The notes beneath the pieces were generated by a model. The model did not search any database, was not told the origin of the DNA, and saw only the letters and a list, made by a program, of their open reading frames with translations. Below, piece by piece: positions 19,091-63,722 of a stretch of DNA of 64,000 bases. Every line of letters starts with the position of its first letter. The first letter of the stretch is position 1. The stretch is taken from the NCBI GenBank assembly GCA_030390025.1, contig JASTWF010000336.1, positions 372,001 to 436,000 of the forward strand, written 5' to 3'. A program made the position numbers and the translations under genes. The DNA is from Squalus acanthias. Its lineage: Eukaryota.

Positions 19091-21654
19091 GGACAGAGGG
19101 AAACCCACACTCACATACCAGAGACTGTCAGGGACAGAGTAAAATCCTCAATCATACAACAGATACTGGCAGATACATAATGCAACCCACTCACACATAC
19201 CAGAAACCACAGGAACAAAATAAAGCACATACTCACATACCAGACACTGACTGGTACAAAGAAAAACCCACACTCACATCCCAGAGACAGACAGGTACAG
19301 AGTAAAACACACACACACATGGCAGAAACTGACAATTACAGACAAAAACCCACACTCACATCCCAGAGTATGACAGATATAGAGTAAAACCTACCCTCGC
19401 ACACGAAAGATTAACAGATACAGAGTAAAACCCACACTCACATCCCAGAGACAGACAGGTACAGAGTAAAACACACACTCACATCCCAGAGTATGACAGA
19501 TATAGAGTAAAACCCACACTCACATCCCAGAGACAGACAGGTACAGAGTAAAACACACACACACATGGCAGAAACTGACAATTACAGACAAAAACCCACA
19601 CTCACATCCCAGAGTATGACAGATACAGAGTAAAACCCACACTCACATCCCAGAGTATGACAGATATAGAGTAAAACCAACAGTCACATCCCAGAGTATG
19701 ACAGATACAGAGTAAAACCCACACACACATCCCAGAGTATGACAGGTACAGAGTAAAACACACACACACATCCCAGAAACTGACAATTACAGACAAAAAC
19801 CCACACACACATCCCAGAGACAGACAGGTACAGAGTAAAACCCACACTCACATCCCAGAGTATGACAGATATTGAGTAAAACACACACTCACAACCCAGA
19901 GTATGACAGATGTAGAGTAAAACCCGCACACACATCCCAGAGTATGACAGATACAGAGTAAAACCCCCACACACATCCCAGAGTATGACAGATACAGAGT
20001 AAAACCCCCACACACATCCCAGAGTATGACATATACAGAGTAAAACCCACACATACATCCCAGAGTACGACAGATATAGAGTAAAACCCGCACACACATC
20101 CCAGAGTATGACAGATACAGAGTAAAACACACACACACATCCCAGAGTATGACATATACAGAGTAAAACCCACACACACATCCCAGAGTATGACATATAC
20201 AGAGTCAAACACCCACACACATCCCAGATTATGACATTTACAGGTTAAAACCCACACAAACATCCCAGAGTATAGCATATACAGAGTAAAACCGACACTC
20301 ATATCCCAGAAACTAGCAGGTACTGATTCCAATCCTCACACATATAACAGTAACTAAAAGGTACATAATACAAACCACTCGCACATACAAGAAACCAAAA
20401 GGTGCAGAATAAAGCCCATCCTCACAAACCAGACACTGACAGGGACAAAGAAAAACGCACACTCGGATACCAGAGACTGACAGATACAGAATAAACTCAC
20501 TCTCACTCACCTGTGACTGACTGATACAGAAGAATCCCACACTCACATACCAGAAGCTGACAGGTACATAGTAAAACCCACCTTTGCATACCAGAAACAG
20601 AAGATAGTGAAAAAGACACTCACATAGCAGAGACTGACAGATAAAGACTAAAACCCACACTCCCGCACCAGAAACTTACAGATTCAGCGTAACCCTTTCT
20701 TCCACAGCAGAAATTGACAGGTAGAAAGGAAAAGCCACACTCATGTATCAGAAACTAACTGGTACAGAGTAAAACCAGTAATAGCATACCAGAGACCGAT
20801 GGGTACAGAGTAGAACCCACATTCACAAACCAGAGACTGATTGATGCACAGTAAAACTCACAATCACATATCACAAACAGCCAGTTATAGCATAAAACCC
20901 ACACTCACATGTCAGACACTGATAGATAGAGAATAAAAAATGCATTCAAATACCATACACAGACAGACACAGACTAAAACCCACATTCACAAACCAAAGG
21001 CTGACAGATACAGAATAAAACCCATTCTCACAGAAGAGAAATTGAAAGATGCAGAATAAAACACACACTCACATATCAGAGACTGACTGGTAGAGTAAAA
21101 CCCATAATTCACATATCTGAAACTGATAGTACAGGGTAAAAGCCACATTCACGTACCAGAGACTGACAGGTACAGATTGAATCACACACTGACACACAGT
21201 ATCAGAGGGTGACAGACACAGAATGGATCCCAAACTCACATACAGTACCAGAAATGATAGACACAATGAATCCCACACTGTCACAGATTATTAAAGACTG
21301 ACTGGTACAGAATGAATCTCACTCTCACACATAATCCAGAGACTGACAGAGAATGTACCTCACTGTCACATAAAGTACCAGAAACTGACAAATACAGAAT
21401 CAATCACACAATGACAAGAGTATTAGAGACAGACATACAGAATGATTCTCACTCTCACACACAGTACCGGAGACTGAGAGACACAGCATTAATCTAAATC
21501 TCACATAGAGCTCCAGAGACTGACAGATATAGAATTAACCTCACTCCCACATACAGTATCAGAGATTGTCATTTACAGAATTAATCTAACTGTCACATAC
21601 AGTATCAGAGACTGAGAGATCCAGAATTAATCTATCTCTCACATACAATGTACA

Positions 21655-21817
21655 GAGATCGATAGACTTTTGAATATTAAGGCAATCAAGGGATATGGGG
21701 ATAGTTCAGGAAAGTGGAGATGAGGTAGAAGATCAGCCATGATCTTATTGAATGGCGGAGCAGGCTCGAAGGGCCAAATGGCCGACTCCTGCTCTTATTT
21801 CTTATGTTCTTATGTTC
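21655..21817 (+). mobile_element. CR1 3' tail fragment
   Basis: Near-identical to ~42582-42745; TTCTTATG tail. Confidence 0.85.
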
Positions 21818-22384
21818 TAATTGATTGTTGTACCTGCATGTTAACTTTCTGTAATTCATGTAAAAGGACACTCAAATCCCTCTGAATAGGGACAGAGGAA
21901 AACCCACACTCACATATCAGAGACTGTCAGGGACAGAGTAAAATCCTCAATCATATAACAGAAACTGACAGATACATCATACAGTCCACTCACACATACC
22001 AGAAACCAACAGGTACAAAATAAAGCCCACACTCACATACCAGACACTGACTGGTACAAAGAAAAACCCACACTCACATCCCAGAGACAGACAGGTACAG
22101 AGTAAAACACACACACACGTGGCAGAAACTGAGAACTACAGACAGAAACCCACACTCACATCCCAGAGACATAAGAATTAGAAGCAGGAGTAGGCCGTAC
22201 GGCCCCTCGAGCCTCACAGATACAGAATAAAGCCACAGTCACACACCAGAGATTGTCAGGTACAGAATGACCACCCACTCTTCCATACCAGAAACTGACA
22301 GGTAAAGATTAAAACCAACACTCGGGAACCAGAAACTGACACATATAGAGTAAAACCCACCCTCGCACACCAAAGACTAACAGA

Positions 22385-23202
22385 ACAGTGGCAAATGGAA
22401 TTTAACCCTGAAAAGTGTGAGGTGATGCATTTTGGGAGGACTAAGAAGGCAAGGGAATACACAATGAATGGTAGGACCCTAGGAAGGACAGAGGATCAGA
22501 GGGACCTTGGTGTGCATGTACATAGATCCCTGAAGGCAGCAGGACTTGTAGATAAGGTGGTTAAGAAGGCATATGGAATACTTGCCTTCATTAGCCGAGG
22601 CATAGAATATAAGAGCAGGGAGGTTATGATGGAGCTGTACAAAATGCTAGTTAGGCCACAGCTGGAATACTGTGTGCAGTTCTGGTCGCCACACTATAGG
22701 AAGGATGTGATTGCATTGGAAAGGGTGCAGAGGAGATTCACCAGGATGTTACCTGGGCTGGAGCGCTTCAGCTATGAAGAGAGACTGGGTAGGCTGGGGT
22801 TGTTTTCCTTAGAGCAGAGAAGGCTGAGGGGGGACCTGATTTGAGGTGTACAAAATTATGAGGGGCATAGATAGGGTAGATAGAAAGGAACTTTTCTCCT
22901 TAGTAGAGGGGTCAATAACAAGGGGGCATAGTTTCAAGGAAAGGGGCAGGAGGTTTAGAGGGGATTTGAGGAAAAACTTTTTCACCCAGAGGGTGGTTGG
23001 AATCTGGAACTCACTGCCTAAAAGGGTGGTAGAGGCAGGACCCTCACAACATTCAAGAAGCATTTAGATGAGCACTTGAAACGCCATAGCATACAAGGCT
23101 ATGGACCAAGTGCTGGAAAATGGGATTAGAATAGATAGGGCTTGATGGCGGTGCGGACACGATGGGCCGAAGGGCCTCTTTCTGTGCTGTATAAATCTAT
23201 GA
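22385..23202 (+). mobile_element. CR1 LINE 3' fragment (different subfamily)
   Basis: ORFs 22395-22844 and 22846-23067; distinct 3' UTR. Confidence 0.92.
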
Positions 23203-24618
23203 CTGAGATACAGAGTAAAACCCACCCTTGCAAACGAAAGACTAACAGATACAGAGTAAAACCCACACACATATTCCAGAGTATAGCAGATATAGAGTAA
23301 AACCCACCTTCACATCCCAGAGTATAGAAGATACAGAGTAAAACCCACATTCACATCAAAGAGTATGACAGATACAGAGTAAAACACACACTCACATCCC
23401 AGAGTATGACAGACAGTGTAAAATCTAAAACTCACATCCCAGAGTATGACAGATAGTGTAAAACCTGCACACACGTCCCAGAGTATGACAGATACAGAGT
23501 AACATTCACACTCACATCCCAGAAACTAGCAGGTATTGATTGCAATCCTCACACATATAACAGTAACTAAAATGTACATAATACAACCCACTCGCACATA
23601 CAAGAAACCAAAAGGTGCAGAATAAAGCCCATCCTCACAAGCCAGACACTGACAGGTACAAAGAAAAATGCACACTCAGATATCAGAGACTGACAGATAC
23701 AGAATAAACTCACACTCACTCACCAATGACTGACTGATACAGAAGAAACCCACACTCGCATACCAGAAGCTGACAGGTACATAATAAAATCCACCTTTGC
23801 ATACCAGAAACAGAAGATAGTGAAAAAGACACTCACATAGCAGAGACTGACAGATAAAGACTAAAACCCACACTCACGCACCAGAAACTTACAGATTCAG
23901 CGTAACCCTTTCTTCCACAGCAGAAATTGACAGGTAGAAAGGAAAAGCCACACTCATGTATCAGAAACTAACTGGTACAGAGTAAAACCAGTAATAGCAT
24001 ACCAGAGACCGATGGGTACAGAATAGAACCCACATTCACAAACCAGAGACTGATTGATGCACAGTAAAACTCACAATCACATATCACAAACAGCCAGTTA
24101 TAGCATAAAACCCACACTCACATGTCAGACACTGATAGATAGAGAATAAAAAATGCATTCAAATACCATAGACAGACAGACACAGACTAAAACCCACATT
24201 CACAAACCACAAACTGACAGATACAGAATAAAACCCACTCTCACAGAACAGAAATTGAAAGATGCAGAATAAAACCCAAAATTCACATATCAGAAACTGA
24301 CAGTCACAGAGTAAAACCCACACTCTCATCAGAGACTGACAGGTACAGGGTAAAACCCACATTCATGTACCTGAGACTGACAGGTACAGATTGAATCACA
24401 CACTGACACAGAGTATCAGAGGGTGACAGACACAGAATGAATCCCACACTCCCATACAGTACCAGAAAATGATAGACATACAATGAATCCCACACTGGCA
24501 CTGATAATTAAAGACTGACTGGTACAGAATGAATCTCACTCTCACACATAATCCAGAGACTGACAGAGAATGTAAAGTACTAGACACTCACAAATACAGA
24601 ATCAATCACACAATGACA

Positions 24619-26653
24619 GGGGAAATTAGAGACAGCATAAAATCCAAAGATAGGGCGTATAAAATAGCCAAAAAAAGCGCCAGAGCGGAAGATTGGGAAC
24701 AGTTTAAGATAGAGCAAAGGAGGACAAAGGGCTTAATCAAGAGGGGCAAAATAGCTTACGAAAGCAAGCTGGCGGAAAATATAAAAACTAACTCCAAAAG
24801 CTTTTATAAGTATATCAAGAGGAAAAGACTGGTGAAAACCAAAGTTGGCCCATTGCAGTCAGATACGGGGGAATATATAACGGGAAATAAGGAAATGGCA
24901 GACCAACTAAATGCATACTTTGGGTCAGTCTTTACGAAGGAAGACACAAAAAACCTCCCTGGGATATCGGGAAAAATAGGGACATTTGCAAAGGAGGAAC
25001 TGACGCAAATCAATATCTCTAAGGATATGGTGTTAAGGAAGCTAAAGGGATTGAAGGCTGACAAATCCCCAGGGCCTGATAACATGCATCCTAGGGTACT
25101 GAAGGAGGTGGCCCTAGAGATAGCGGATGCACTAAGTATGATTTTTCAGAATTCATTAGACTCGGGAACAGTGCCCATGGATTGGAGGGTAGCTAACGTT
25201 ACCCCACTATTCAAAAAGGGGGGTAGGGAAAAAGCAGGTAATTACAGACCTGTAAGCCTTACATCAGTTGTGGGCAAAATGCTGGAGTCCATCATTAAGG
25301 ATGAAATAGCGGAGCACTTAGCAAATGGGGACAGGATAGGACAGAGTCAACATGGATTTACAAAGGGTAAATCGTGCTTGACTAATCTATTGGAATTTTT
25401 TGAGGGAGTAACTGGTAAAATAGATGGGGGAGAGCCAGTAGATGTGGTGTACCTGGACTTCCAAAAGGCCTTCGATAAGGTCCCACATAAAAGATTAGCA
25501 GGGAAAATTGAAGCTCATGGGATAAAGGGGAAAGTATTGACGTGGATAGAGAACTGGCTGTCAGATAGAAAACAGAGAGTTGGAATAAACGGCTCATTTT
25601 CTGAATGGCAGGCAGTAACAAGTGGTGTACCACAGGGATCTGTCCTGGGTCCCCAGCTGTTCACAATTTACATTAATGACCTGGATCAGGGAGTCGGATG
25701 CAGCATTTCCAAATTTGCAGACGACACTAAACTAGGAGGGGGGGTGGGCTCAGAGGAGGAGACCAGGAAGCTCCAGAGCGATTTGGACAGACTGGGTGAT
25801 TGGGCGGATAAATGGCAGATGCACTATAATGTGGACAAGTGCGAAGTTATCCACCTTGGGTGCAGGAACGGGAGGGCAAATTATTATTTAAATGGCAATA
25901 AATTGGGAGAGGGGGAAGTACAGAGAGACCTGGGTGTTCTTGTACATCAGTCACTGAAGGCGAGCATGCAGGTGCAACAGGCGGTCAAGAAGGCAAACGG
26001 TATGCTGGCCTTCATAGCAAAAGGGTTGGAATACAGGAACAGGGATACCTTGCTGCAGCTGTACAGGGCACTGGTGAGACCACACCTCGAGTACTGTGTA
26101 CAGTTTTGGTCGCCTCATCTGAGGAAAGATGTTCTTGCCATGGAGGGGGTGCAGCGGCGATTCACCAGGCTGATACCAGGAATGGCGGGATTGACCTATG
26201 AGGAGAGACTATGTAGTTTAGGGATGTACACACTGGAGTTTAGAAGATTGAGAGGGGACCTCATAGAAGTGTATAAAATTCTGACAGGTCTAGACAGACT
26301 AGATGCAGAAGGAATGTTTCCCTTGGCGGGTGAGAACAGAACTAGAGGACATAATTTAAGGATAAGGGCTAAACCATTTAGGACAGAAATGAGGGGGAAT
26401 TTCTTCACTCAGAGGGTGGTGAACCTCTGGAACTCATTGCCACAGAGGGCAGTGTACGCCAGCTCATTAAATATATTTAAGAGGGAATTAGATATATTTC
26501 TACAGGCAAAAGGGGTTAAGGGTTACGGAGAGAAGGCGGGGACGGGATACTGAATTGGAGGATCAGCCATGATCTCATTAAATGGCGGAGCAGGCTCGAA
26601 GGGCTGGATGGCCTACTCCTGCTCCTATCTTCTATGTATCTATGCATCTATGT
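24619..26653 (+). mobile_element. Young 5'-truncated CR1 LINE with uninterrupted RT reading frame
   Basis: ORF 24529-26553 with RT motifs (NYRPVSL, QHGF, KAFDKV, PQGS, FADD); ATGACA on both sides; empty site in the duplicate at ~21411. Confidence 0.96.
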
Positions 26654-28837
26654 ATGACAAGAGTATCAGAGACAGACAGACCCAGAATGATTCTCACTCT
26701 CGCACACAGTACCGGAGACTGAGAGGCACAGCATTAATCTAAATCTCACATAGAGCACCAGAGACTGACAGATACAGAATTAATCTATCTCTCACATACA
26801 TTATCAGAGACTGACAGACCCAGAATTAATCTATCTCTCACATACAGTATCAGAGACTGACAGATACAGAATGAATCCCACACTTACATACAACACCAGG
26901 GACTGATAGATACTGAATTAATCTAACTCTCACATGAACACACCTCATTGTCACATACAGTACCAGAGACCGACAAATCCAGAATTAACCACACACTGAC
27001 AAAGAGTATCAAAGTCTGAGAGATAAAGATTGAATCTAACTCTCACATAGCGTACCAGAGACTGACAGAGAGAGAATGAATCTCACACTAATACAAAGTA
27101 TCAGAGACAGACAGGTACAGAATGAATCCCACACTCATATACAGTACCAGATAGTGACAGAGACTGAATTAAACTAACTCTCACATACAGTATCATAGGC
27201 TGACAGGTACAGAATAAATCACACGCTGACAAAGAGTATCAAAGTCTGAGAGATAAAGATTGGATATCACTCTCACATACGGTACCAGAGATTAACAGAG
27301 CCAGAATTAATCTATCTCTCACATAAGATATCAGAGACTGACAGATATAGAATGATTCCCAAATTCTCATGCCATGCCAGAAACTGACTGATATAGAATA
27401 CATCTCATTCTCACATACAATATCAGAGACTGACAGATGCAGAATGAACCCTGCACTTACATACAACATCAGAGAATGACAGATACTGAATTAATCTAAA
27501 TCTCACATACAGAATCATAGACTGACAGACAGAGAATGAATCTCACACTAACTTTGTGACAGGGCCTGACAGACATAGAATAAATCCCACACTCACATAC
27601 AGTACCAGAAAATGAGAGAGACAAAATGAATTCCACTCTGATACAGAGTATTAAAGACTGACTGATACAGAATGAATCTCAATCTCACACATAACACCAG
27701 AGACTGACAGATACAGAATGTATCTCACTGTCACATAGAGTATCAGACACTGACTAATACAGAATCAATCCCACACTGACACAGATTATCAGAGACTGAC
27801 AGATACAGAATAAATCTCACGCTCACATACGGTTTCAGAGACTGACAGATGCACAGAATGAATCTCACACTCACATACAGTTCCAGATAGTGACAGAGAC
27901 AGAATTAAACTAACTCTCACATATAGTATCAGAGACTGACAGGTACAGAATAAATCCCAAACTCACATGCCATACCAGGAACTGATAGATATAGAATAAA
28001 TCTCAATTTCACACACACTATCACAGATTGGCAGAGAGAGAGAATGACAGAGTATCAGAGGGTGACAGACACAGAATTAATACACACTCGTATACAGTAC
28101 CAGAAAATGAAAGAGACAAAATTAACCCCACATTAAAGACTGATTGGTACAGAATGAATCACACTTTCACATACAGCACCAGAGATTGACAGATATATAA
28201 TTACTCTAACATACACCTACAGAACATAGACTGACAGACAGAGAATCTTTCTCACACTGACACAGAGTATCAGAGTCCCTGACAGATACAGAATGAGTAC
28301 ACAATTACATGCAGTTCAATTGATTTACAGATAGATTCAGACCCACACTCACTAGCAGAGATGGAATGAATCTCAAACTATCAAGTACCAGAGACTGATC
28401 GATACAGTATGAATGCCACATTCATAAACCGAGTGAGTAGCAGATTCATGCGGAATCTGTCGCTGAAATACAGTACCAGAGACAGACAGATTCAGAACTA
28501 ATCAGACAGTGACATATAGTACCAGAGAATGACAGATTCAGGATGAATCCCAACACTTGACACACGGTACCAGAGTCTGACGGATACAGATGGAATCCCA
28601 CTCTAAGACGTGGTACCAGTGACGGACAGGAAACGAATGGATCCCACACTCTCAGAATGTAACAGAGACTGAGATTGAGAATGATTCCCACACTGACATA
28701 AATCACCAGAGACTGAGTGATATAGAACTATTCCCACACACACAGTACTGGAGACTGACAGATACAGAACTAAAATAACAACAGAAAATGCTGGAAAAAC
28801 TCAGCAGGCCAGGCAGCATCCGTGGAGAGAGAAAGAG

Positions 28838-33669: not shown

Positions 33670-33840
33670 TCAAATTGGAGAGGTTGCTGGAAGCTGAGAG
33701 CCCTTTCTCTCTGTCACTCTGGATCTGTCTCCTCCCTTCCCGCTCTCTGCTCTGTCTCTCATTCAAATTCCCTCCCGTTCACCTCACGCACAGTGTCTGC
33801 CTTTCTCAGCCAGGTCCGCTCCGGCTGCATAAATAAAGCT
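33670..33840 (+). promoter_or_regulatory. Displaced upstream promoter of the H4 gene at 41199
   Basis: Homologous to the promoter of H4 at 6026 (CTTTCTCAGCCAGGTCCG...GGCTGCATAAATA); 13-bp repeat CATAAATAAAGCT at 33828-33840 and 41138-41150. Confidence 0.85.
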
Positions 33841-33958
33841 CCGAAAGCTTGTAATTTTAAATAAATCGGTTGGACTATAACCTGGTGTTCCTCTTTTTGG
33901 TTGGACAGAACCCAAATTAACTGTAAATCAATTAAAACTTTAAATGAAACTTAATAAA

Positions 33959-36900
33959 TCAAATTAAAATTTGGAAGTCCGGGGTGACGATGCACTCCAG
34001 TCCCCGCGGCGCCCACCGGTCGCGGAAAAACTCAAGCGTGCCGGTGGACACCGCGTGCTCCATCTCCAGGGCCACCCGGGCGCGAACATGGCCGCGGAAG
34101 AGAGGCAGGCAATCGGGCCGAACGACCCCCCCGACCGCCCGCTGCCTGGACCAATTAATGGCTTTCTTGGCCAGGCCCAGGAGCAGTCCTACGAGGAGGT
34201 CCTCCGACCTACCCGCTCCCCTCCGCACCGGGTGACCGTAGATCAGGAGCGTGGGGCTGAAGTGCAACCAGAAATTGAGGAGCAGCCCCTTCAAATAATG
34301 AAAGAGGGGCTGCAACCTCTCACATTCAACATAAATGTGATAGACGGACTCCTCCAGGCCGCAGAAATGGCAAGCAGCCTGGGAGTCCGTAAACCTACTT
34401 AAAATCCTATTGCACGGGACTGCTCCGTGCAACACCCTCCAGGCCAAGTCCCCAATAGAACAAGGGAAGACTCCCGCGTAGAGAGCCTTCCAATGGGGAC
34501 CTTCGCCTCCGCCGGACGGCAGGATGGTACGCCAAGGCGTGTCCGGACGGCAGACGAAGATGGCAAAGTGGAGAGTGTGCAGGAGCAGCCCGTACAGGAA
34601 ACGCCTCCGTGCGGATTGAAAGGGCACGGAGGGCATTTCTCCGAGAAGGCTCAAGTGGTGAGGCGGCGGCTCCCGAGGGAGGATTCGGGGCCGGGCGCCG
34701 ATAAGGAATTCCGTCCGAACGGGGGTCAGTTCGGACGGGATCGCCCCACGTGCTTGAGCCTCCTCGACACACCTAGTGGAGACGGGGCCCAGTGCCACTT
34801 TTAGCGACTCGATGGCTTTGACCGCGAGCCGGACGTTGACCCAGGACATGCGCCTCGCCAACTCCTCCGGCGCCATCCAGCCCGCTCCTCCGCCATCGAG
34901 CAGGTCCCCGACTCTGGTCACCTTACCGGGCACAGCCCTGCCCTCCGCCAGCCAGCCGAACCCGCGGTCGTGGAGGTGCGGATTCCTGAACAGCGGCTCC
35001 CGAAGGACGGCCGCCGCTCCTGACGGGGGAGAACTGCGCTCGGAGGCGACGCTGTTCCAAACCCATAGCAGTTCCTGGTAGAAGATAGGCAGCTCCCGCA
35101 GGCTGGCACGCGTGCCACCCACTCTCACAAACAGGAGCTGCGTGTCGTAATTGAGGCCGTGCAGCTGGCGGAAGAAATACGTCGCCAGCGCACGCCACCT
35201 AGGAGGATTCTCCACGTACAGGTATCTCTGCAGCGTCTGAAGACGGAAAGTCGCCGCCTGGGTGCGAAGGCACACCAGCGCCTGACCGCCCTCCCTAAGC
35301 AGGAGACTCAAAACCGCGGCAGAGACCCAGTGCTTCCTTTTGTCCCAGAAGAAGTCGACGAGATTCTTCTGCATCTTGGCGACAAACGCAGGGGGAGGGA
35401 TCAAAGTGATCAACCGGTACCACAACATGGCGGCCACCAGCTGGTTTATGACCAGCGCTCGACCCCTGTAGGACAACACTCGGAGCAGTCCTGTCCAGCG
35501 CCCTAGGCGAGCGGTGACTTTGGCCTCCAGCTCTTGCCACTTCGCCGGCCAGGCGTCCTCGGCCGGGCTGAGGTAGACTCCCAGGTAGAGGAGGTGCGTG
35601 GTGCTCCAGGCGAAAGGCCCGAACTCCTCCGGCAGGGAGTCCACCCGCCATGGGCCCACCAGGAGTCCAGAACATTTCTCCCAGTTGATCTTGGCGGAGG
35701 ATGCGTCCGAGTAAATCTGCTGGCATTCTCGCATCCTCCGCAAGTCGACGGGATCCGTGACCGCGAGGAGCACGTCATCGGCGTAAGCCGAGAGGACCAC
35801 CTCCACGCCCGGCCCTTGCAGAGCCAGTCCCGTCAACCTCTTCCGCAAGAGGCGCAGGAAAGGCTCCACGCAAACGGCGTATAACTGACCGCACATGGGG
35901 CATCCCTGACGCACCCCCCTCCCGAAGCGAAGGGGCGCCGTCAAAGACCCGTTAACTTTAATCAGACACTCCGCGGCGGCGTACAGAAGTCGGATCCGGG
36001 CGACGAAATGCGTCCCGAACCCGAATGCGCGCAGAGTCCCGAAAAGATACTCGTGATCCACCCTGTCGAACGCCTTCTCCTGATCTAGGGAAAGGAAGGC
36101 GACCGACAGACCAGCCCTCTGGGAATGGTGGACCAGGTCCCGGACCAGATGGATGTTGTCGTGGATTGTCCGGCCCGGGACCGTGTAGGACTGGTCGGGG
36201 TGGATCATGCGGGCCAGCACGGTGCCAAGGCGAGCAGACATAGCCCTGGCGAAAATTTTGTAGTCCGTGCTGAGGAGGGAGACCGGGCGCCAGTTCTTAA
36301 GTAGGCGGAGATCGCTCTTCTTGGGCAGCAGGACGATGACCGCCCTGCGCCAAGAGAGGGGCATCTCCCCGGTCGCCAGACTTTCCCCCAGGACCCGCGC
36401 GTAGTCGTCCCCCAAGACGTCCCAGAACGCCCTGTGGAACTCCACGGTCAGCCCGTCCAGCCCCGGGGACTTGCCCCTCGAGAGCTGGCGCAGGGCGCCG
36501 GTCAGCTCCGCCAGGCTTAGCGGAGCTTCTAAATACTCGGCGCCCTCCGGGCCGACCTTCGGCAGGTTCTCCCACAAAACTCTGCGTGCATCCTCGCTGG
36601 ACGGATCCGAAGAGAACAGAGCCCCGTAATAGGCCCGGGCCTCCGCGCTGATGCCCTCCGGATCCGAGACCAGAGATCCGTCGTCGGCCAGCAGCCCCAA
36701 GAGCTGCTTACGGACCCCCCGTCTTTTTTCCAGCGAGTAGAAGAAGGGGGAGCCGCGGTCCAGGTCCCACAGGAACTGGATCCGCGACCTCACGTACGCG
36801 CCTCGGGACCCGACCAGCTGCAGGTCCTGCAGCGCGCCCTTCTTCTCTTCGTACACCTTCCGCAGGGCCGGGTCCTCGACGACTTGACCGAGACTGGACT

Positions 36901-37858
36901 CCAGGTCGAGCACTTCTTTCTCCAATCGCCCGACCCGGGCCTCCCGCCTCTTGGTCGACCCCTTCGCGTACTCCTGACAGAAGACGCGGACGTGAGCCTT
37001 GCCCATGTCCCACCATAGCCTCAAGGAGGGGAAGCCTCCCCGCTTCCTTCTCCAGTCGGCCCAGAACCGGCGAAACGAATCCCGGAACCGCACGTCCTCC
37101 AGCAGCAGGTTGTTAAAATGCCAGTACGCGGACCCCCCCCGCGCGCGCAGCGGAGCGAGCTCCGCCCACACCAGGTGGTGGTCCGTGCACGGCACCGGCC
37201 GCATGGAAGCCGCCGGAACGCAGGAGACGTACGCCCGGGAAATGTAAAGGCGGTCGATTCTGGACCTTCCTCCTCCAGACCTTACGCTCGTGAAGGCGCT
37301 GGAGTCGGGATGGAGATATCGCCAGACGTCCACCAAGTCGAAGGACCCGACCAGGTCCCGCAACTTCTCCATCGCCGCCGGGCTTCGCGGGGGACCCGAC
37401 CGGTCCCGCGCCTCGAGGGTACAATTGAAATCCCCCCCGAGGATGACGCACTCGCCCACGTCGATGGAGCCCAGAAGAGCGGACACTTCTCCGAAGAAGC
37501 GCACTTGCTGCGCACCGGGCCGGGGGGCGTACACGTTCACTAAATGGAGCGGCACGCCTCCCAGGCGAACAGTGACCTGGAGCAAGCGGCCCGGCACGTG
37601 CTCCTTGACCCTCAAGATCTCCGGCTGAAAATGCGGGGCCAGCAAGACAGCCACCCCGCAGGAATTGTTAGAGAGGTGACTCATGCTGACCCCTCCTTGC
37701 CACTCCAGGAGCCACGTGGCCTCGTCTCCCGGAACGGTGTGGGTTTCTTGCAGGAAGCACACCGCATATTTCCCGTCCCGAAGGACCGAGAAGTTATTGA
37801 ATCTACGGCGCGCCTCCCTGCTGCCGTTGATGTTGAGGCTGGCTATGGTTATCTTCAT
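33959..37858 (-). CDS. Tx1 ORF2: APE endonuclease, reverse transcriptase, C-terminal zinc finger; intact
   Basis: ASLNING, LQETH, GGDFN, SRIDR, TDH; KNWRPVSL, DQEKAFD, RQGCP, YADD; CHFCGLEESVYHIYVEC. Confidence 0.96.
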   Translation of the reverse strand: MKITIASLNINGSREARRRFNNFSVLRDGKYAVCFLQETHTVPGDEATWLLEWQGGVSMSHLSNNSCGVAVLLAPHFQPEILRVKEHVPGRLLQVTVRLGGVPLHLVNVYAPRPGAQQVRFFGEVSALLGSIDVGECVILGGDFNCTLEARDRSGPPRSPAAMEKLRDLVGSFDLVDVWRYLHPDSSAFTSVRSGGGRSRIDRLYISRAYVSCVPAASMRPVPCTDHHLVWAELAPLRARGGSAYWHFNNLLLEDVRFRDSFRRFWADWRRKRGGFPSLRLWWDMGKAHVRVFCQEYAKGSTKRREARVGRLEKEVLDLESSLGQVVEDPALRKVYEEKKGALQDLQLVGSRGAYVRSRIQFLWDLDRGSPFFYSLEKRRGVRKQLLGLLADDGSLVSDPEGISAEARAYYGALFSSDPSSEDARRVLWENLPKVGPEGAEYLEAPLSLAELTGALRQLSRGKSPGLDGLTVEFHRAFWDVLGDDYARVLGESLATGEMPLSWRRAVIVLLPKKSDLRLLKNWRPVSLLSTDYKIFARAMSARLGTVLARMIHPDQSYTVPGRTIHDNIHLVRDLVHHSQRAGLSVAFLSLDQEKAFDRVDHEYLFGTLRAFGFGTHFVARIRLLYAAAECLIKVNGSLTAPLRFGRGVRQGCPMCGQLYAVCVEPFLRLLRKRLTGLALQGPGVEVVLSAYADDVLLAVTDPVDLRRMRECQQIYSDASSAKINWEKCSGLLVGPWRVDSLPEEFGPFAWSTTHLLYLGVYLSPAEDAWPAKWQELEAKVTARLGRWTGLLRVLSYRGRALVINQLVAAMLWYRLITLIPPPAFVAKMQKNLVDFFWDKRKHWVSAAVLSLLLREGGQALVCLRTQAATFRLQTLQRYLYVENPPRWRALATYFFRQLHGLNYDTQLLFVRVGGTRASLRELPIFYQELLWVWNSVASERSSPPSGAAAVLREPLFRNPHLHDRGFGWLAEGRAVPGKVTRVGDLLDGGGAGWMAPEELARRMSWVNVRLAVKAIESLKVALGPVSTRCVEEAQARGAIPSELTPVRTEFLIGARPRILPREPPPHHLSLLGEMPSVPFQSARRRFLYGLLLHTLHFAIFVCRPDTPWRTILPSGGGEGPHWKALYAGVFPCSIGDLAWRVLHGAVPCNRILSRFTDSQAACHFCGLEESVYHIYVECERLQPLFHYLKGLLLNFWLHFSPTLLIYGHPVRRGAGRSEDLLVGLLLGLAKKAINWSRQRAVGGVVRPDCLPLFRGHVRARVALEMEHAVSTGTLEFFRDRWAPRGLECIVTPDFQILI

Positions 37859-37883
37859 CTCAGAAGCATAGTGCAACCTCTAC

Positions 37884-40041
37884 CTAACGGAGGGGAGGGA
37901 GCGCGGTCACTGACGACCGCCACTCCCTCAGCAGCCCAGTGTGGAAACTCTTGAGCCGACGCAGCTCGAGCCGGCCAACGTCCTTGTCCGCGCCCATGAT
38001 TTTAACGGCGGCGCGGACGGACACGACGAGCAGCGCCAGCTCCGACCACTTGTCGAGGGCCAGCCGGATCTTCTTGTGACGACCCTGGCTCATGGCCATA
38101 AAATCCCAGAGTTCCCCTACGGGGATGAGGGGAGAGTCGGTGAAGGGCACAAGGGCGTCCATCACCTCGCTGCCGATGGACTCCAAATCGTCCTCGATGC
38201 CCACCACCGAGTCCCCGTCCTCCTCCGGGAGGTCGTCACCGGCGGCCGACCCGTCCGTCGCACGGGGTGCAGCGAAAGGCTCGGCCGCACCGGCCGGCCC
38301 CGCCTCCGTCACGATCCCACCCCCAGGATCGGCGGCAGAGGAGTCCACCCTGGGCTCCTTCAGGGGCGCCGGGCCGGGAGGCGGCGGCGGTTCGGGCCCC
38401 CCCCCCGCCTCAGGCGCCGGAGCGACCGGAGAAACCGGGGAGAAAATAATCTCAAATTCCTCCAGTACGTCCGGCGCCAACATCAGAGACGGAGTCAGGG
38501 GGCTTTCTGTCTCCCCGCCACCAACCTCCGACCCAGCGGACTGGGGATTGTTATACTCCTCCACCAGGTCGAGCAGTCCCTGGGAGATATCTGGATTGTA
38601 AAAGGCGGGCTCGGCTTCAGCCTCTTTGGCCTCGCCCGCCCCAGTCCCCAGGACGCCCGACCCGGCGAGGAGCAACGGTTCCGGAACTACATTTCCCTCC
38701 GCGGGTTGTTCCGCGCCCCCCCCCCCCCATGGGCAGGGTCTCTTCCCCATCCCCGGGAGGCACAGGTCGGACAGACTCGGCTGTCTCACCCTCCCGAGGG
38801 ACAGGCGACCCCCGCCGCTCGCGCGCGACGATGACGGTGGTGGGGTGGGGCGCAGCACCCGCGGCGGGCGACGACTCCCCTTCCGCGGAGGGACCTTCCT
38901 CCTCGCAGTCCTCCTCCTGGGGGTCGAGCTTCCTTTTTAACATATTGGGGCCCGGAGAGGGGGAGGCCTCCATGTCTGCTGGGGCCTCCCTCTCTGCCCC
39001 CTTCCGATGACTGGGTTTCTTGGGCCCCTCGGGCCCGAGCCCGGCCGCAGGTCTTGATTCAGCTGCCTCAGCAGTTGCGGTCACGGTCACGGGCCCGGGC
39101 ACGAGGACCCCCCCAGTCTCATGCGTCCCGACCAACTCCGCGATGTACTCGGGCGTGAGTTCGGTCAACTCGGATGTTTCCTCCGCGAGGGGATCCGCCC
39201 TTAGGTGTTTATTTTTCCTACGCGCCTTCCTTCCCCCCGGACGCTCTCCCTCCTCCCCGCCGGAGGCCGTGGTGGTGTTGGCCTCCGATTTCGACCGCGC
39301 ATCCGTCGCCGTCGACGCGCGGACAGTATCAGGGGGAGGGGGGGCGGCAGCGCCAACCCTGGCCGCGCCAGGTGTCGTGGCGGCCTTGGAGGCGGGGCAG
39401 TTTTTGCGGACGTGCCCCACCTCCTTACAGGCGTAGCACCGCACGCTGTCCGAGGTCCAGAAGACGCGGTGGGCGGTCCCCCCGTGGAGCACCGTGAACG
39501 CGCCATCCGCGTCCTCCTCCCGCGCCAGCCGGACGAAAAGCTGGCGCCGGAAGGAGAAGACGTGCCGAAGGCTGGCTTCCCGGAAGCCGAGCGGGATGGG
39601 TGTGATCCCCGACCTCACCTCCCCCAGTTGACGTAGGTGGGGGAGGAGGAGCTCACCCGGAACAAAGGGCGGGACGTTGGAAACCACAATCCTTTGCGCG
39701 GTGGCCTCAAGGGGGTCCACCGGCAGGAAGGTCCCGCCCACGGTGAGCCCCTTCTCGATGACCAGGGACACCGCCCGCTCCGTCCCCAGGAAGAACACAG
39801 CCTTGCCGTACATTTTAGAGGCGGCGACGATGGCTGAAGGGCCGACAACCCCAGCCATGGCTTTTACGCACGCCTCTATTGTCATATTGGGGTGAGTGCA
39901 GCTCTTGACCCCATTCTTCCTCGTAAGGAGGGTAAAAGGTGACGGGGTAACAGGAGGACTCGTGGCTGAGGCCGTGGCCGCGGCTGCCACGCTTGCGTAT
40001 GTCCTCGCTGCCCCCGCCACCGGCGAAGATGTAGTCGCCAT
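37884..40041 (-). CDS. Tx1 ORF1 (zinc knuckle), frameshifted in a C13 run at 38716-38728
   Basis: ORFs 38617-40071 and 37884-38858 join to match the intact ORF1 at 57507-59654; CYACKEVGHVRKNC. Confidence 0.9.
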
Positions 40042-41034
40042 GATGGGTTGGTCCTTAAGGGCTACACTCACCCCAAGTCACAGGCCTGAAGGTGTTAATG
40101 GCCTCTGGTTTTTTGTTTTTGTTTTCCCCTGAGCAGAGGGAGCTCTTAAATTGAAGGCACACCTCTCCCTTTGTATGAATTAATTAGGAGAGGGGCCTTC
40201 TCCCCTCTGCTCAATAGGTACTTAATTAAAAGATAATGAGGTGCCTCTTAGAGAGAGAGGCAGAGAGAGACAAGAGACAAAGAGAGAGAGAGAGGGGGTG
40301 GGAAGGAGGGAAGCCGCAAGGGCAGGGTCGCCACTCAGGATGGTGGGTGGGTGGGTGTTGGCAGGGGGGTGCACTCTCCGATGTAATAAAAGTCTTTGGT
40401 GGTGGTCTTCTGGTGGGGGGAGAAGATGTCTTCACCTGGGATAGCTGGAGATGCCCAGGCTCAGTCCTGCACCAGGTCTTAACGATGCCCAATAAGATTA
40501 AATTAATTGGGGACTTCACCTAGGCAGCTCCAGATGTCCCAGGCCAGGCAATGGGAAAGGGGTGTTTAATATGGTGTGTGCGGCCTAGCTTTTACAGAAG
40601 CCACACACACACACACACACACACACCCCTTGGATGTTCCGGCCCTCTTCTTTTTCTTCTTTCCTCCCCCCACCTACAAAACAAAGTCTCTGGGAGAGTG
40701 CACCAGAATCACACCCACCTGTAGATGATGTTCTTTCCTTCCTCCCTCCTTCCAAACAGTTGATGTTTGTTGTTGGTATGTTTTCTCCCCTCTCTCCCTC
40801 TCCTAAAATGGAGGCCAATTGAGGAGGCAGTGTGGAAAGACCTCTCCTCTGATGTTTGATGGCCTTGGCCTTCTTTTCTTTTCTTTCCTCTCTCCTCTCC
40901 TGTCCTCTCTCTCCAGGCACCTCAGTTGTGGATGTGTTGGTTGTTGGTGGTGGCCTGCTGTCTGGTCTCCTTCTCCTTCTCCTCTTCCTGCTCACAGAGA
41001 CCACTCTGCTGCTGCTGCTGCTCCTCCGTCAGCA

Positions 41035-41137
41035 GCTCCGAAAGCTTGTAAAATTAAATAAATCTGTTGGACTATAACCTGGTGTTGTGCGACTTCTCAT
41101 TTTTGTCCACCCCAGTCCAACACCGGCATCTCCACAT
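41035..41137 (+). mobile_element. 3' half of hammerhead repeat plus its tail (Penelope/retrozyme-like), Tx1-A target
   Basis: GCTCC-GAAA-GCTT-GTAA...TTGGACTATAACCTGGTGTTGTGCGACTTCTCA; same family as 48888-49009 and 63649-63722. Confidence 0.8.
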
Positions 41138-41189
41138 CATAAATAAAGCTGTAAGGCGAGAGATTCTCATTTAGCGACGATTTGAGTGA

Positions 41190-41510
<321 letters not shown>

Positions 41511-48457: not shown

Positions 48458-48501
48458 GTTGTTGTATTTGATGCTAAAGTCTGGAGCCGGGCAGGGTGAG
48501 T

Positions 48502-48887
<386 letters not shown>

Positions 48888-48896
48888 TATTTGAAA

Positions 48897-48938
48897 TCAC
48901 AAGCTTTCGGAGCTATCGATCGCCCCTTCCTCAGGTGA
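48897..48938 (-). ncRNA. Minimal type I hammerhead motif in a 96-bp tandem unit
   Basis: Minus strand TCAC-CTGAGGA-A-GGGGC-GATCGATA-GCTCC-GAAA-GCTT-GTGA. Confidence 0.8.
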
Positions 48939-49857
48939 AGTGAATGAGAAGTCGCACAACACCAGGTTATAGTCCAACAGTTTTATTTGAAATCACAAGC
49001 TTTCGGAGCTGCTGACGAAGGAGCAGCAGCAGCAGAGTGGTGGTCTCTGTGACCAGGAAGAGGAGAAGGAGAAGGAGACCAGACAGCAGACCACCACCAA
49101 CAACCACTACTGAGGTGCCTGGAGAGAGAGGACAGGAGAGGAGAGAGAAAAGAAGGGAAGGCCAAGGCCATTAACAACAGAGGGGAGGCCTTTCCATCAC
49201 TGCCTCCTCAATTGGCCTCCATTTTAGGAGAGGGAGAGAGGGGAGAAAACATCACAACATCCATCATCTGTTTGGAAGGAGGAAGGAAGGAAAGAACAGC
49301 TACAGGTGAATCTTTTATTCAAACCAATAATACAAATTACATAGTAAAACCATTACATTCATCCATCAAAATACAGTACAAATACCCCCAAACAATACCA
49401 CACTTTTTTTTTTATATTAAAATAATACATCTCACTTAACTCCACATAAAACAACCCATTTCAACACCACAGTGTACAAACACATAGCACCATCACAATC
49501 CAACTAAATGCCACATATAACATCCACTCCAATAACCCAAGAAACCTGTTCCGCGCCAGTCCCACTGGCACCGCCCACCCGACCATCCACTCAATTGTTC
49601 TCCGTGCTGGGCCTCCCGCCCAGGCCACTCTCCTCCGGGTCTTCCACCTTGGGCCTTCTGCACCGGACCCTCCGCACCGGCATTCCCCGCGAGCAGCCGG
49701 GGTGAATCAACTGCATCTCCCGACTCCACCTCTGCCGACCAGCCGCCCCGCCCTGGGCCCCCCGCCTGGGGTTCTCCGTGCTGGGCCTCCCGCCCAGGCC
49801 ACTCTCCTCCGGGTCTTCCACCTTGGGCCTTCTGCGAAGCGGACAACTTGGAGTGCA

Positions 49858-52800
49858 TTAAATTAAAATAACATTTCCCGGGGAAACGATGCACTCCAGT
49901 CCCTGCGGCGCCCACCGGTCTCGGAAGGCTTCAAGTGTGCCGGCGGACACCGCATGCTCCATCTCCAGGGCCACCCGGGCGCGAACATAGCCGCGGAAGA
50001 GAGGCAGGCAATTGGGCCGAACGACCCCCTCGACCGCCCGCTGCCTGGACCTGTTAATGGCCACTTTGGCCAGGCCCAGGAGCAGTCCTACGAGGAGGTC
50101 CTCCGACTTGCTCTCTCCCCTCCGCACCGGGTGACCGTAGATCAGGAGCGTGGGACTGAAGTGCAACCAAAAAGCGAGGAGCAGCCCCTTCAAATATTCA
50201 AAGAGGGGCTGCAACCTCTCACATTCCACATAAACGTGGAACACGGACTCCTCGAGGCCGCAAAAAAGACAGGCGGCCTGGGAGTCCGTGAACCTACTTA
50301 AAAACCGATTGCACGGGACTGCTCCGTGCAACACCCTCCAGGCCATGTCCCCAATAGAAAAGGGGAGTACTCCCGCATAGAGAGCCCTCCATTGGGGACC
50401 TTCGCCTCCGCCGGACGGCAAGATGGCACGCCAAGGCGTGTCCGGACGGCAGGCGAAGATGACAAAGTGGAAAGTGTGCAGGAGCAGCCCGTACAGGAAA
50501 CCCCTCCGTGCAGAACTGAAGGGCACAGAGGGCATTTCCCCGAGACGGCTCAAGTTGTGAGGCGCCGGTTCCCGAGAGGGGTTTCGGGGCCGTGCGCCGA
50601 TGAGGAATTCCGTCCGAACGGAGGTCAGTTCGGACGGGATCGCCCCACGTACTTGAGCCTCCTCGATACACCTAGTGGAGTCCGGGCCCAGTGCCACTTT
50701 CAGCAACTCGATGGCTTTGGCCGCGCGCCAGACGTCTGCCCAGGAGAGGCGCCGCGCCAACTCCTCTGGCGCCATCCAGCCCGCTCCTCCGCCATCGAGC
50801 AGGTCCCTGACTCTGGTCACCTTGCCTGGCACAGCCCTGCCCTCCGCCAGCCAGCCGATCCGTCGGACGTGGAGGTGCGGATTCCTGAACAGCGGCTCCC
50901 GAAGGAGAGCCGCCACTCCTGACGGGGGAGAACTCCGCCTGGAGGCGACCTGGTTCCAGACCCATAGCAGTTCCTGGTAAAAGACAGGCAGCTCCCACAG
51001 GTAGGCTCGCGTGCGGCCCAATTCCACAAACAGGAGCTGCGTGTCGTAGTTGAGGCCGTGCATCTGGCGGAAGAAATACGTCGCCAGCGCACACCATCTG
51101 GGAGGATTCTCGACGTAAAGGTACCTCTGCAGCGTCTGAAGACGGAAAGTCGCCGCCTGGGTGCGAAGGCACACCAGCGCCTGACCGCCCTCCCTAAGCG
51201 GGAGACACAGAACCGCGGCAGAGACCCAGTGCTTCCTTTTGTCCCAGAAGAAGTCGATGAGCATCTTCTGTATCTTGGCGACAAACGCAGGGGGAGGGAT
51301 CAAAGTGACCAACCGGTACCACAACATGGCGGCCACCAGCTGGTTTATGACGAGCGCTCGACCCCTGTAGGACAACACTCGGAGCAACCCCGTCCAGCGT
51401 CCTAGGCGAGCGGTGACCTTGGCCTCCAGCTCTTGCCAGTTCGCCGGCCAGGTGTCCTCGGCAGGGCTGAGGTAGACTCCCAAGTAGAGGAGGTGTGTTG
51501 TGCTCCAGGCGAAGGGCCTGAACTCCTCCGGCAGGGAGTCCACCTGCCACTGGCCCACCAGGAGTCCAGAACATTTCTCCCAGTTGATCCTGGCGGAGGA
51601 TGCGTCCGAGTAAATCTGCTGGCATTCTCGCATCCTCCGCAGGTCGACGGGATCCGTGACCATGAGGAGCACGTCATCGGCGTAAGCCGAGAGGACGACC
51701 TCCATGCCCGGCCCTTGCAGAGCCAGTCCCGTCAACCTCTTCCGCAAGAGGCGCAGGAAAGGCTCCACGCAAACGGCATATAACTGACCGGACATGGGGC
51801 ATCCCTGACGCACCCCCCCTCCCGAAGCGAAGGGGCGCCGTCAAAGACCCGTTAACTTTAATCAGACACTCCGCGGCGGCGTACAGAAGTCGGATCCGGG
51901 CGACGAAATGCGTCCCGAACCCGAATGCGCGCAGAGTCCCGAAGAGATACTCGTGATCCACCCTGTCGAACGCCTTCTCCTGATCCAGGGAAAGGAAGGC
52001 GACCGACAGACCAGTCCTCTGGGAAAGGTGGACCAGGTCCCGGACCAGATGGATGTTGTCGTGGATTGTCCGGCCCGGGACCGTGTAGGACTGGTCGGGG
52101 TGGATCATGTGGGCCAGCACGGTGCCGAGGCGGGCAGACATGGCCCTGGCAAAAATTTTATAGTCCGTGCTGAGGAGGGAGACCGGGCGCCAGTTTTTTA
52201 AAAGGCGGAGATCACCCCTCTTGGGCAGCAGGACGATAACCGCCCTGCGCCAAGAGAGGGGCATCTCCCCGGTCGCCAGACTTTCCCCCAGGACCCGCGC
52301 GTAGTCGCCCCCCAAGACGTCCCAGAACGCCCTGTGGAACTCCACGGTCAGCCCGTCCAGCCCCGGGGACTTTCCCCTCGAGAGCTGGCGCAGGGCGCCG
52401 GTCAGCTCCGCCAAACTTAGCGGAGCGTCCAATTCTTCGGCGCCCTCCGGGCCGACCTTCGGCAAGTCCTCCCACAAAACTCTGCGCGCATCCTCGCTGG
52501 ACGGATCCGGAGAGAACAGAGCCCCGTAATAGGCCCGGGTCCCCGCGCTGATCCCCTCCGGATCCGAGACCAGAGATCCGTCGTCGGCCAGCAGCCCCAA
52601 GAGCTGCTTACGGACCCCTCGTCTTTTTTCCAGCGAGTAGAAGAAGGGGGAGCCGCGGTCCAGGTCCCGCAGGAACTGGATTCGCGACCTCACGTACGCG
52701 CCTCGGGACCCGACCAGCTGCAGGTCCTTCAGCGCGCCCTTCTTCTCTTCGTACACCTTCCGCAGGGCCGGGTCTTCGACGACTTGACCGAGACGGGACT

Positions 52801-53758
52801 CCAGGTCGAGCACTTCTTTCTCCAATCGCCCGACCCGGGCCTCCCGCCTCTTGGTCGACCCCTTCGCGTACTCCTGACAGAAGAGACGGACGTGAGCCTT
52901 GCCCACGTCCCACCATAGCCTCAAGGAGGGGAAGCCCCCCTGCTTCCTTCTCCAGTCGGCCCAGAACCGGCGAAACGAATCCCGGAACCGCACGTCCTCC
53001 AGCAGCAGGTTGTTAAAATGCCAGTACGCGGACCCCCCCGGCGCCTGCAACGGAGCGAGCTCCGCCCACACCAGGTGGTGGTCCGTGCACGGCACCGGCC
53101 GCATGGAAGCCGCCGGAACGCAGGAGACGTACGCCCGGGAAATGTAAAGGCGGTCGATTCTGGACCTTCCTCCTCCAGACCCCACCCAAGTGAAGGCGCT
53201 GGAGTCGGGATGGAGATTTCGCCAGACGTCCACCAAGTCGAAGGACCCGACCAGGTCCCTCAACTTCACCGTCGCCGTCAGGCTTCGCGAAGGGCCCGAA
53301 CGGTCCCTCGCCTCGAGGGTACAATTAAAATCCCCCCCGAGGATGATGCACTCGCCGACGTCGACGGTGCCCAGAAGAGCGGACACTTCATCGAAGAAGC
53401 GCACTTGCTGCGCACCGGGCTGGGGGGCGTACACGTTCACTAAATGGAGCGGCACGCCCCCCAGACGAACAGTGACCTGGAGCAAGCGGCCCGGCACATG
53501 CTCCTTGACCCCCAAGATCTCCGGCTGAAAATGCGGGGCCAGCAAGATAGCCACCCCACCGGAAACGTTGGAGAGGTGACTCATGCTGACCCCTCCTCGC
53601 CACTCCAGGAGCCACGTGGCCTCGTCTCCCGGAACGGTGTGAGTTTCCTGCAGGAAGCACACCGCATGCCTCCCTTCCCGAAGGACCGAGAAGTTATTAA
53701 ATCTACGGCGTGCCTCTCTGCTGCCGTTGATGTTGAGGCTGGCTATGGTTATCTTCAT
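49858..53758 (-). CDS. Tx1-B ORF2 (EN-RT-zinc finger), one frameshift in a C run at 51813-51819
   Basis: ORFs 51674-53776 and 49858-51813 join; C7 here versus C6 in copy A1. Confidence 0.92.
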
Positions 53759-53789
53759 GACAAGAGCATAGTGCAACCTCTACCTTACT

Positions 53790-59654: not shown

Positions 59655-59679
59655 GTAGAGGTTGCACTATGCTTCTGAG

Positions 59680-63580: not shown

Positions 63581-63683
63581 TTTGTTAAGTTTCATTTAAA
63601 GTTTTAATTGATTTACAGTAAATTTGTGTTTGTCCAACCAAAAAGAGCAACACCAGGTTATAGTCCAACAGATTTATTTAATT

Positions 63684-63722
63684 TTACAAGCTTTCGAAGC
63701 AGTTCGCTCCTTCGTCACGTAA
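63684..63722 (-). ncRNA. Hammerhead motif variant (core C3 changed to G)
   Basis: Minus strand TTAC-GTGACGA-A-GGAGC-GAACT-GCTTC-GAAA-GCTT-GTAA. Confidence 0.65.

Follow-up and report, generated by a model that had tools for sequence, protein, structure and literature searches.

Imperfect 52-bp repeats around Tx1-clade elements in a Squalus acanthias histone locus: probably a short target-site duplication and an inherited target-derived leader

Introduction

Long interspersed nuclear elements (LINEs) with an endonuclease of the apurinic/apyrimidinic type (APE) usually leave target-site duplications (TSDs) of 10-20 bp, as quoted in PMC6895275. The window analysed here, 64,000 nucleotides of Squalus acanthias DNA (NCBI GenBank assembly GCA_030390025.1, contig JASTWF010000336.1, positions 372,001 to 436,000 of the forward strand), is a histone gene cluster rich in LINE fragments (Rfam: seven histone stem-loops and one tRNA), in which Tx1-clade LINEs are flanked by repeats of 52 bp whose copies are not identical. 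How does an APE-type LINE come by flanks of such length, and why do the two copies differ? We consider it probable that the repeats are not long TSDs and that each is composed of a true duplication of 14-15 bp and a 38-nt target-derived leader, inherited on the element.

Results

The four 52-bp copies

Repeat positions were numbered 1 to 52 along the element (Tx1) strand. The sequence-only reading had placed two pairs of imperfect 52-bp copies around two elements, and both were confirmed: pair 1, around element A (33838-33889 and 41035-41086), has three mismatches, at positions 22, 34 and 35, and pair 2 (48958-49009 and 63649-63700) has six, at positions 24, 32, 34, 35, 37 and 49. Its two cross-matches were also reproduced, since a single difference, at position 49, separates element A's 5' copy from the 3' copy of the second element (51/52 alike), and the 5' copy of the second element equals its tandem neighbour at 48888-48913 at 26/26 bases. 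This "element 2", taken for one uninterrupted element, is in fact a composite of a 5' piece (D), an antisense element (B) and a 5'-incomplete body (C).

Positions 1-14 are free of mismatch in both pairs and all nine mismatches fall within positions 15-52, a clustering that is weak taken alone (P=0.11). With the divergence between the second open reading frames (ORF2) of A and C (1.1%) as the decay rate of a Poisson model, pair 2 exceeds decay (P=3e-5 for six substitutions, 3e-4 for five events; 4e-3 for five events at 2%). For pair 1 the outcome is borderline (P=0.02 for three substitutions, 0.11 for two events, positions 34-35 looking by eye like one micro-inversion of positions 31-38). Ordinary decay is compatible with pair 1 (P=0.02-0.11) and not with pair 2, which may be a composite.

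Truncated copies in public contigs

Four public runs, out of 23 listed, were compared with window positions 33700-41250, the DNA runs as Logan contigs and one RNA run as raw reads; 15 of 142 joints and 12 of 53 rows with the letters between the sides were listed. Two of these runs, X1 and X2, are DNA runs from different samples and studies, and a third, X11, is labelled as another organism. Among the 15 listed joints, four run from the Tx1 body, at 34130, 34175, 34199 and 34540, into the right-hand target. Each of the four meets it at 41073, which is position 14 of the repeat, and none at 41035 (position 52). The 34175 joint was found in both X1 and X2, the chance of four out of five such joints falling at one of 52 positions is ~4e-5, and, unlike other X1 joints, the four have no GATC or GANTC within 6 bases of either end. 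They represent copies with a truncated 5' end, around which no more than 14 bases of target are duplicated; counting the C at 63648, the duplication can be read as 15. The stagger is thus usually 14-15 bp, inside the span of 10-20 bp quoted for APE LINEs. In a true long TSD the same duplication would be found in truncated and full-length copies, and 4/4 of the listed truncated joints free of restriction sites keep 14 bp; the premise of 52-bp TSDs is therefore probably wrong. If full-length elements carry positions 15-52 at their 5' end, the 5' and 3' copies stem from different target molecules.

The joint 34914->41076 was not counted, a GANTC site lying at one end. The joints 41087->40707 and 41087->36898 and those ending at 36607, 37303, 34685, 34739, 36206 and 36310 were dropped as proximity-ligation-like, on account of GATC or GANTC sites. 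One X2 joint, 41103->34344, starts higher up in the tail, enters the Tx1 body after 21 letters of other sequence and is not accounted for here.

Parts of the four 52-bp copies as read here
33838-33875, minus strand: 3' copy of A, positions 15-52, taken to be target of local origin; fragment of a Penelope-like tail, 5'-truncated at hammerhead stem II
33876-33889, minus strand: TSD (14 bp), 3' copy of A; identical to 41073-41086, its length taken from the truncated copies
41035-41072, minus strand: 38-nt target-derived leader of A, positions 15-52; missing from the four truncated copies joined at 41073; may reach 41033 (+2 nt)
41073-41086, minus strand: TSD, 5' copy of A; AACACCAGGTTATA on the element strand
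48958-48971, plus strand: TSD, 5' copy at element 2; 29/29 identical to 41073-41101, upstream flank included
48972-49009, plus strand: 38-nt leader of piece D, a target variant other than that of A's leader
63649-63662, plus strand: 3' copy of the TSD at element 2, becoming 15 bp with the C at 63648 included
63663-63722, plus strand: local target at element 2, rest of the 52-mer into the hammerhead 5' half, where the hammerhead motif (63683-63722) is on the minus strand

The leaders of A and D differ at 5 of 38 positions. The variant of D is the consensus of the loose contig ends at 41056 in X1 (36 contigs), X2 (50) and X11 (1), and the mismatches of pair 2 therefore match real target variants; loose ends record only departures from the window stretch, so that the commonest target variant is not readable from them. 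The Logan contigs are short, and no full-length locus beyond the window was read across both sides. An X11 loose end at 41033 continues into an uninterrupted target variant whose stem II loop matches 41033-41034, the two bases that follow the 52-mer in A and D. The leader may thus be 40 nt long and the ancestral junction a fold-back at the hairpin.

The Tx1 elements

Tx1 elements and pieces at the two loci
33890-41034, minus strand: Tx1-clade LINE A, full length; ORF1 (40041-37884) frameshifted, ORF2 (37858-33959) open
49010-49308, plus strand: piece D, the first 299 nt of the 5' untranslated region (UTR) of an A/C-family Tx1; 17/297 mismatches and 8 gap openings against A
49309-56919, minus strand: Tx1 element B, of a second family at 85% to A; has its own 5' end and is nested within the D/C leader in antisense
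56920-63648, plus strand: Tx1 body C, 5'-incomplete, starting at a (TG)n tract; 98.0% to A (6793 columns); its ORF1 is open and its ORF2 has a frameshift near 60398
41017-41032 (in A), minus strand: inverted scrap of a hammerhead 5' half where the element body begins; D has it as well (49012-49027), and there 49013-49024 matches the 63701+ flank (blast)

By their domains and identity the A/C elements are Tx1-clade LINEs. The ORF2 of A encodes an N-terminal APE endonuclease (Exo_endo_phos, 1.4e-11) and a reverse transcriptase (RT; RVT_1, 9e-36), with a weak C-terminal zf-RVT match (3.9e-5) under its curated cut-off. It is identical at 646 of 1299 positions (50%) to YTX2, the Tx1 ORF2 of Xenopus laevis, which is a full-length match and among the top ones; the partial matches of highest identity come from Heterodontus (74%) and Hemitrygon (68%). 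The ORF1 of C carries a zf-CCHC domain (21.5 bits against a cut-off of 20.8), and a domain-family search with the ORF1 of B gave no family. A, B and C have one frameshift each.

A and D, the two full-length 5' ends in the window, share the 5' junction and the inverted scrap (2/2), in which A carries a substitution. D and C, which may be parts of a single insertion, are collinear and of the same orientation. Divergence between A and C amounts to 1.1% in ORF2, 2.0% in ORF1, 3.1% in the shared 5' UTR (17/557) and 4/68 in the 3' UTR, and D differs from A at 17/297 positions (5.7%), as compared with 17/557 for the adjacent UTR of C (Fisher p=0.066). A 3-bp insertion of D relative to A is in the majority in X1 (87945 of a depth of 90857) and X11 (68.5/96.4) and in the minority in X2 (8317/27466). 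The prevalence of its insertion in X1 and X11 indicates that D is no odd relic.

The differences between A and C are clustered in short AT-rich UTR patches of 3-6% (40050-40620 against 56920-57506, and 33890-33958 against 63581-63648), and this patchy divergence suggests mosaic subfamilies. Within 1048 codons of ORF2, 11 differences are synonymous and 23 non-synonymous. Two contigs of X11 (10 and 11) differ from A's ORF2 (34494-37858) at 17/2390 and 7/974 bases, and more than half of the sampled words are present in runs of six organisms; the near-identical ORF2 in a run of another organism may reflect slow evolution, close relatives or horizontal spread. Element B sits between two CACACC-like stretches, with ~95 bp of the A-type host UTR absent at the site, and a clear TSD was not seen. 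Its 3' UTR is long and contains AATAAA as well as an internal repeat; the 3' UTRs of A and C are short and without poly(A). On the element's own strand the start of a hammerhead core is present and no properly placed GAAA was seen by eye; the two 5' ends fold differently on that strand (z -2.27 and -0.18).

The target and its surroundings

On the strand opposite to Tx1, the 52-mer consists of one half (3') of a minimal type I hammerhead motif and the beginning of a tail. The target is probably the tail of a Penelope-like repeat with a putative minimal hammerhead, into which Tx1 inserted antisense. Pattern parsing identified two copies of the motif with paired stems I and II, at 63683-63722, where the first core base and one stem II pair are changed, and at 48897-48939. 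Rfam at its gathering threshold reported no hammerhead in the window, and free-energy folds of the two copies are non-significant (z -1.36 and 0.13). Moreover, no Penelope ORF (RT plus GIY-YIG) was recognised within the window, so that the assignment to Penelope-like elements (PLEs) rests on motif and geometry. Minimal type I hammerheads mark the terminal repeats (pLTRs) of such elements (PMC4209133), and the RT of the anole element PAc has start sites at 111-118 (PMC11167929), near which the 115-118 nt measured at locus A fall. The target has in common with the PLE pLTRs and tails described in these two sources the core motif, the short helix I, the palindromic minimal helix III and the tandem units, as well as the AC-rich tail ending ~115 nt from stem II and the AT-rich insertion site; it is unlike them in the missing Penelope ORF and in the changed core base of the copy at locus C. 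In the window, two 3' junctions and two full-length 5' junctions point to one target site, as do the four truncated junctions at 41073 in public contigs.

Features of the target and its flanks
41087-41139, plus strand: AC-rich tail of the Penelope-like repeat, ending 115-118 nt from the inferred start of hammerhead stem II
48888-48957, minus strand: tandem neighbour unit that carries a further minimal type I hammerhead motif (48897-48939) and is cut short at a damaged H3 gene
33828-33840, plus strand: outer 13-bp duplication, left copy, the TATA-like box of a histone H4 promoter; identical to 41140-41152, overlapping the 52-mer by 3 bases
41140-41152, plus strand: outer 13-bp duplication, right copy; H4 coding sequence starts at 41199

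Public contigs with an apparently empty site join both flanks of A (33838->41151 in X1, 33828->41139 in X2), and these may be paralogous H4 promoters. The simplest order of events at locus A would be a short Penelope-like tail (105-bp fragment) first and Tx1 thereafter. The resulting 7.3-kb composite of Penelope-like tail and Tx1 lies between the H4 promoter and the gene, with the TATA-like box duplicated. At 41199 an open H4 frame begins with MTGR and has KRTT in place of KRKT, the usual form of histone H4 at that site. The damaged H3 gene lies on the minus strand at 48480-48890, its start replaced by the truncated tandem hammerhead unit, and long decayed arrays of 41-bp and 46-bp satellites, broken by CR1-like LINE pieces, occupy 17245-28600. 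A pattern scan of prokaryote genomes gave 0 matches; those in viral (2) and metagenome (17) contigs were taken as chance, all 19 loci matching the window over no more than 27 bases by blast.

Discussion

A proposed leader copied from RNA

The observed junctions are of three kinds: the 3' junction is fixed at position 1, the 5' junctions of truncated copies lie at +14, and those of full-length copies at +52, followed by the same inverted scrap in A and D. We propose that this Tx1-clade LINE aims at one site in the hammerhead tail of an abundant Penelope-like repeat, in antisense orientation. The APE endonuclease would nick the bottom strand at the start of the 52-mer, as the fixed 3' junction suggests, and the top strand would be opened 14-15 nt further, where the truncated copies have their junctions. 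The full-length RNA would start with target sequence, which would include positions 15-52 as a minimum and probably also part of the TSD and of the upstream tail; an ancestor would have gained this leader and the short inverted hammerhead scrap once, in an aberrant 5' junction. The cDNA end could then anneal to the 14-nt overhang, and second-strand synthesis would copy the RNA-borne leader into the new site. At positions 15-52 the 5' copy would thus come from the parent element and the 3' copy would be local target, so that the two can differ from the day of insertion, and the leader would restore a complete target in front of each full-length copy. The sequence-only reading had offered templating of one copy by target-bearing RNA as one of its options; this is the best-supported reading for positions 15-52 of the 5' copy, and the TSD proper would be an ordinary one of 14-15 bp.

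Locus A supports this proposal in that it lacks downstream sequence able to pair with the 5' scrap and nevertheless has the same junction as D. Several points weigh against it. We infer the inheritance of the leader across loci from comparison of copies, with only two full-length 5' ends at hand for setting leader against lineage, and the leader of D is identical to its local tandem neighbour (26/26), for which a local origin would be the more direct account. Between A and D, the leaders differ more (5/38) than the adjacent UTRs do (17/297), and leaders must consequently be refreshed occasionally from target copies. Pair 1 by itself fits a true duplication with two later events (P=0.11), and the target fragment at locus A stops exactly at 52-53, for which only a 4-nt microhomology accounts. 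In the public data, joints at +52 could be present among the unlisted ones (15 of 142 joints and 12 of 53 between-letter rows are listed), the letters between the sides are known for only two of the four joints, and a raw RNA run (X21) yielded seven reads, all less than 90% alike.

Alternative explanations

The most serious competitor, although unlikely, is cutting at two sites, with a default top-strand cut at +14 for truncated copies and one at +52, at hammerhead stem II, when full-length RNA is present. The 52-bp duplication would then be real, pair 1 differing by decay, which its two events (P=0.11) allow, and pair 2 by the joining of two loci. Full-length-specific cut sites are known in melanogaster-group R1A (PMC2718515), the scrap is complementary to the sequence just beyond the repeat at locus C, and the 5' copy of D equals its local neighbour. 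In a specific form of this idea, which we regard as slightly less probable still, the full-length RNA would pair its inverted 5' scrap with the target strand by the stem II hairpin and so shift the second nick from +14 to +52, giving 52-bp duplications in complete copies only. However, the scrap-complementary sequence is missing downstream at locus A (unless A arrived as a composite) and the scrap of A is substituted, a chimeric pair 2 is required for which the support is p=0.066 only, and a stagger of 52 nt goes beyond the 10-20 bp quoted for APE LINEs (PMC6895275). That pair 2 is indeed a recombinant, in which D and C, each together with its own flank, derive from two insertions joined through or around B, is a possibility with real though minority weight; it is compatible with an inherited leader and would make the mismatches of pair 2 uninformative on TSD formation. 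The larger distance of D from A (5.7%) than of C's UTR from A (3.1%), the ~95 bp absent at the B site and the different target variants in the left and right flanks speak for it. The difference is non-significant (p=0.066), however, the 3' UTR of C is itself 4/68 from A, most of the depth in X1 and X11, though not in X2, carries D's 3-bp insertion, and D runs collinear with C in the same orientation. With an inherited leader, recombination of two loci is not needed for pair 2.

The remaining explanations have little to recommend them. An RNA-borne 3' copy, with 52 nt of target at the 3' end of the element and a nick at +52, or retrotransposition, into a degenerate H4 promoter site, of a Tx1 transcript that included both flanks, would suit the 3' copy at locus A, which ends exactly at +52-53, and the outer 13-bp duplication, which is near the Tx1 stagger. 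It is nonetheless very unlikely, as it predicts truncated joints at +52 and they were found at +14; furthermore, the 3' copy at locus C continues into a matching hammerhead half with paired stem I, and the other end at locus A, at 115-118 nt from stem II, coincides with the place at which a Penelope-like RT is expected to begin. Equally improbable is a true 52-bp duplication altered by decay or assembly error, or an insertion between pre-existing tandem units. The frameshifts of A, B and C indicate that decay or error exists, and pair 1 is borderline, but pair 2 is beyond decay, its variant bases recur in the neighbour unit and in public contigs, and neither version explains the +14 junctions. 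The tandem-unit version, put forward in the sequence-only reading, finds a neighbour that is a whole hammerhead unit of ~96 bp, not 52 bp, and ~96 bp away, and both full-length 5' junctions are identical. Finally, an inversion between A and C might have swapped the 5' flanks, the original pair being the 5' copy of A and the 3' copy of C, which differ at 1/52 positions. The other swapped pair would still differ at four positions, and the two sides of A together make up one H4 promoter, for which there are a direct 13-bp duplication and contigs with an apparently empty site. This last explanation we hold to be the least credible of all, and a simple A-C crossover inversion was excluded on the outer 13-bp duplication, the collinear flanks and the empty-site contigs, a short gene conversion being still conceivable.

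Should the inherited leader be true, the apparent exception to the 10-20 bp rule for TSDs of APE LINEs disappears, and the propagation of junctions described for R2 and R1 extends to the Tx1 clade. As the target is dispersed and polymorphic, unlike homogenised ribosomal DNA (rDNA), mismatches between leader and local target would mark RNA-derived and target-derived bases locus by locus, and thus provide a natural read-out of second-strand priming, a poorly understood step. A target rebuilt ahead of each full-length copy could feed head-to-tail arrays. Moreover, such insertions should not be dated by the divergence of their flanks.

Comparison with known systems

R1 is an APE-type element. In Drosophila its TSD is 14 bp (PMC2718515), like the one read here. 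Ancestral R1 is described with this 14-bp TSD in full-length and truncated copies, and in melanogaster-group R1A the 5' junctions of the two kinds differ, since the full-length RNA carries 28S sequence (PMC2718515; Stage and Eickbush 2009). In R1A it is upstream target sequence that is carried, leading to a 9-bp deletion or rearrangement (PMC2718515), whereas here it would be downstream sequence, lengthening the apparent duplication. Long flanks around a site-specific LINE are also reported for rotifer R9, with a TSD of 126 bp (cited in PMC6895275); that source describes it as a true distant stagger, and here the truncated copies give a stagger of 14 bp.

Tx1L of Xenopus laevis, the type element of the Tx1 clade, resembles our elements in its two ORFs, the zinc knuckle in ORF1, the APE and RT domains and site-specific insertion in a mobile element; its target is the piggyBac element Tx1D instead of a Penelope-like hammerhead tail, and the accounts of it in PMC4494074 and PMC1950540 describe no target-derived leader. 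Crocodilian Tx1 families (Tx1-Mar and others; Kojima 2015) also aim at other transposons, the targets named in the text of PMC4494074 being Mariner, Harbinger and LTR (long terminal repeat) elements and microsatellites, with no Penelope target among them. According to the same source, many SINEU copies are antisense to their target, transcription from the flanking target has been proposed, and tandem insertions occur around a short TSD, 16 bp for SINEU-3. Our literature search found no Penelope-targeting Tx1 and no target-derived Tx1 leader, within a coverage that mostly did not extend to subscription papers, Repbase, or the supplements and figure 3 of PMC4494074.

The closest parallel is R2 of the earwig, in which all 5' junctions carry a 22-bp copy of downstream 28S sequence with three substitutions, ascribed to propagation in the template RNA (PMC3774820; Eickbush et al. 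2013). As in that system, a fixed 5' junction with downstream target sequence is found here in full-length copies (A and D, 2/2 in the window). Earwig R2 has a restriction-like endonuclease, a target in 28S rDNA and RNA processing by a ribozyme like that of hepatitis delta virus (PMC3774820). On the element strand of our Tx1 elements no processing ribozyme was identified, and, unlike earwig R2, they combine an APE endonuclease and a dispersed, polymorphic transposon target with what is probably a 38-nt leader on a 14-bp TSD.

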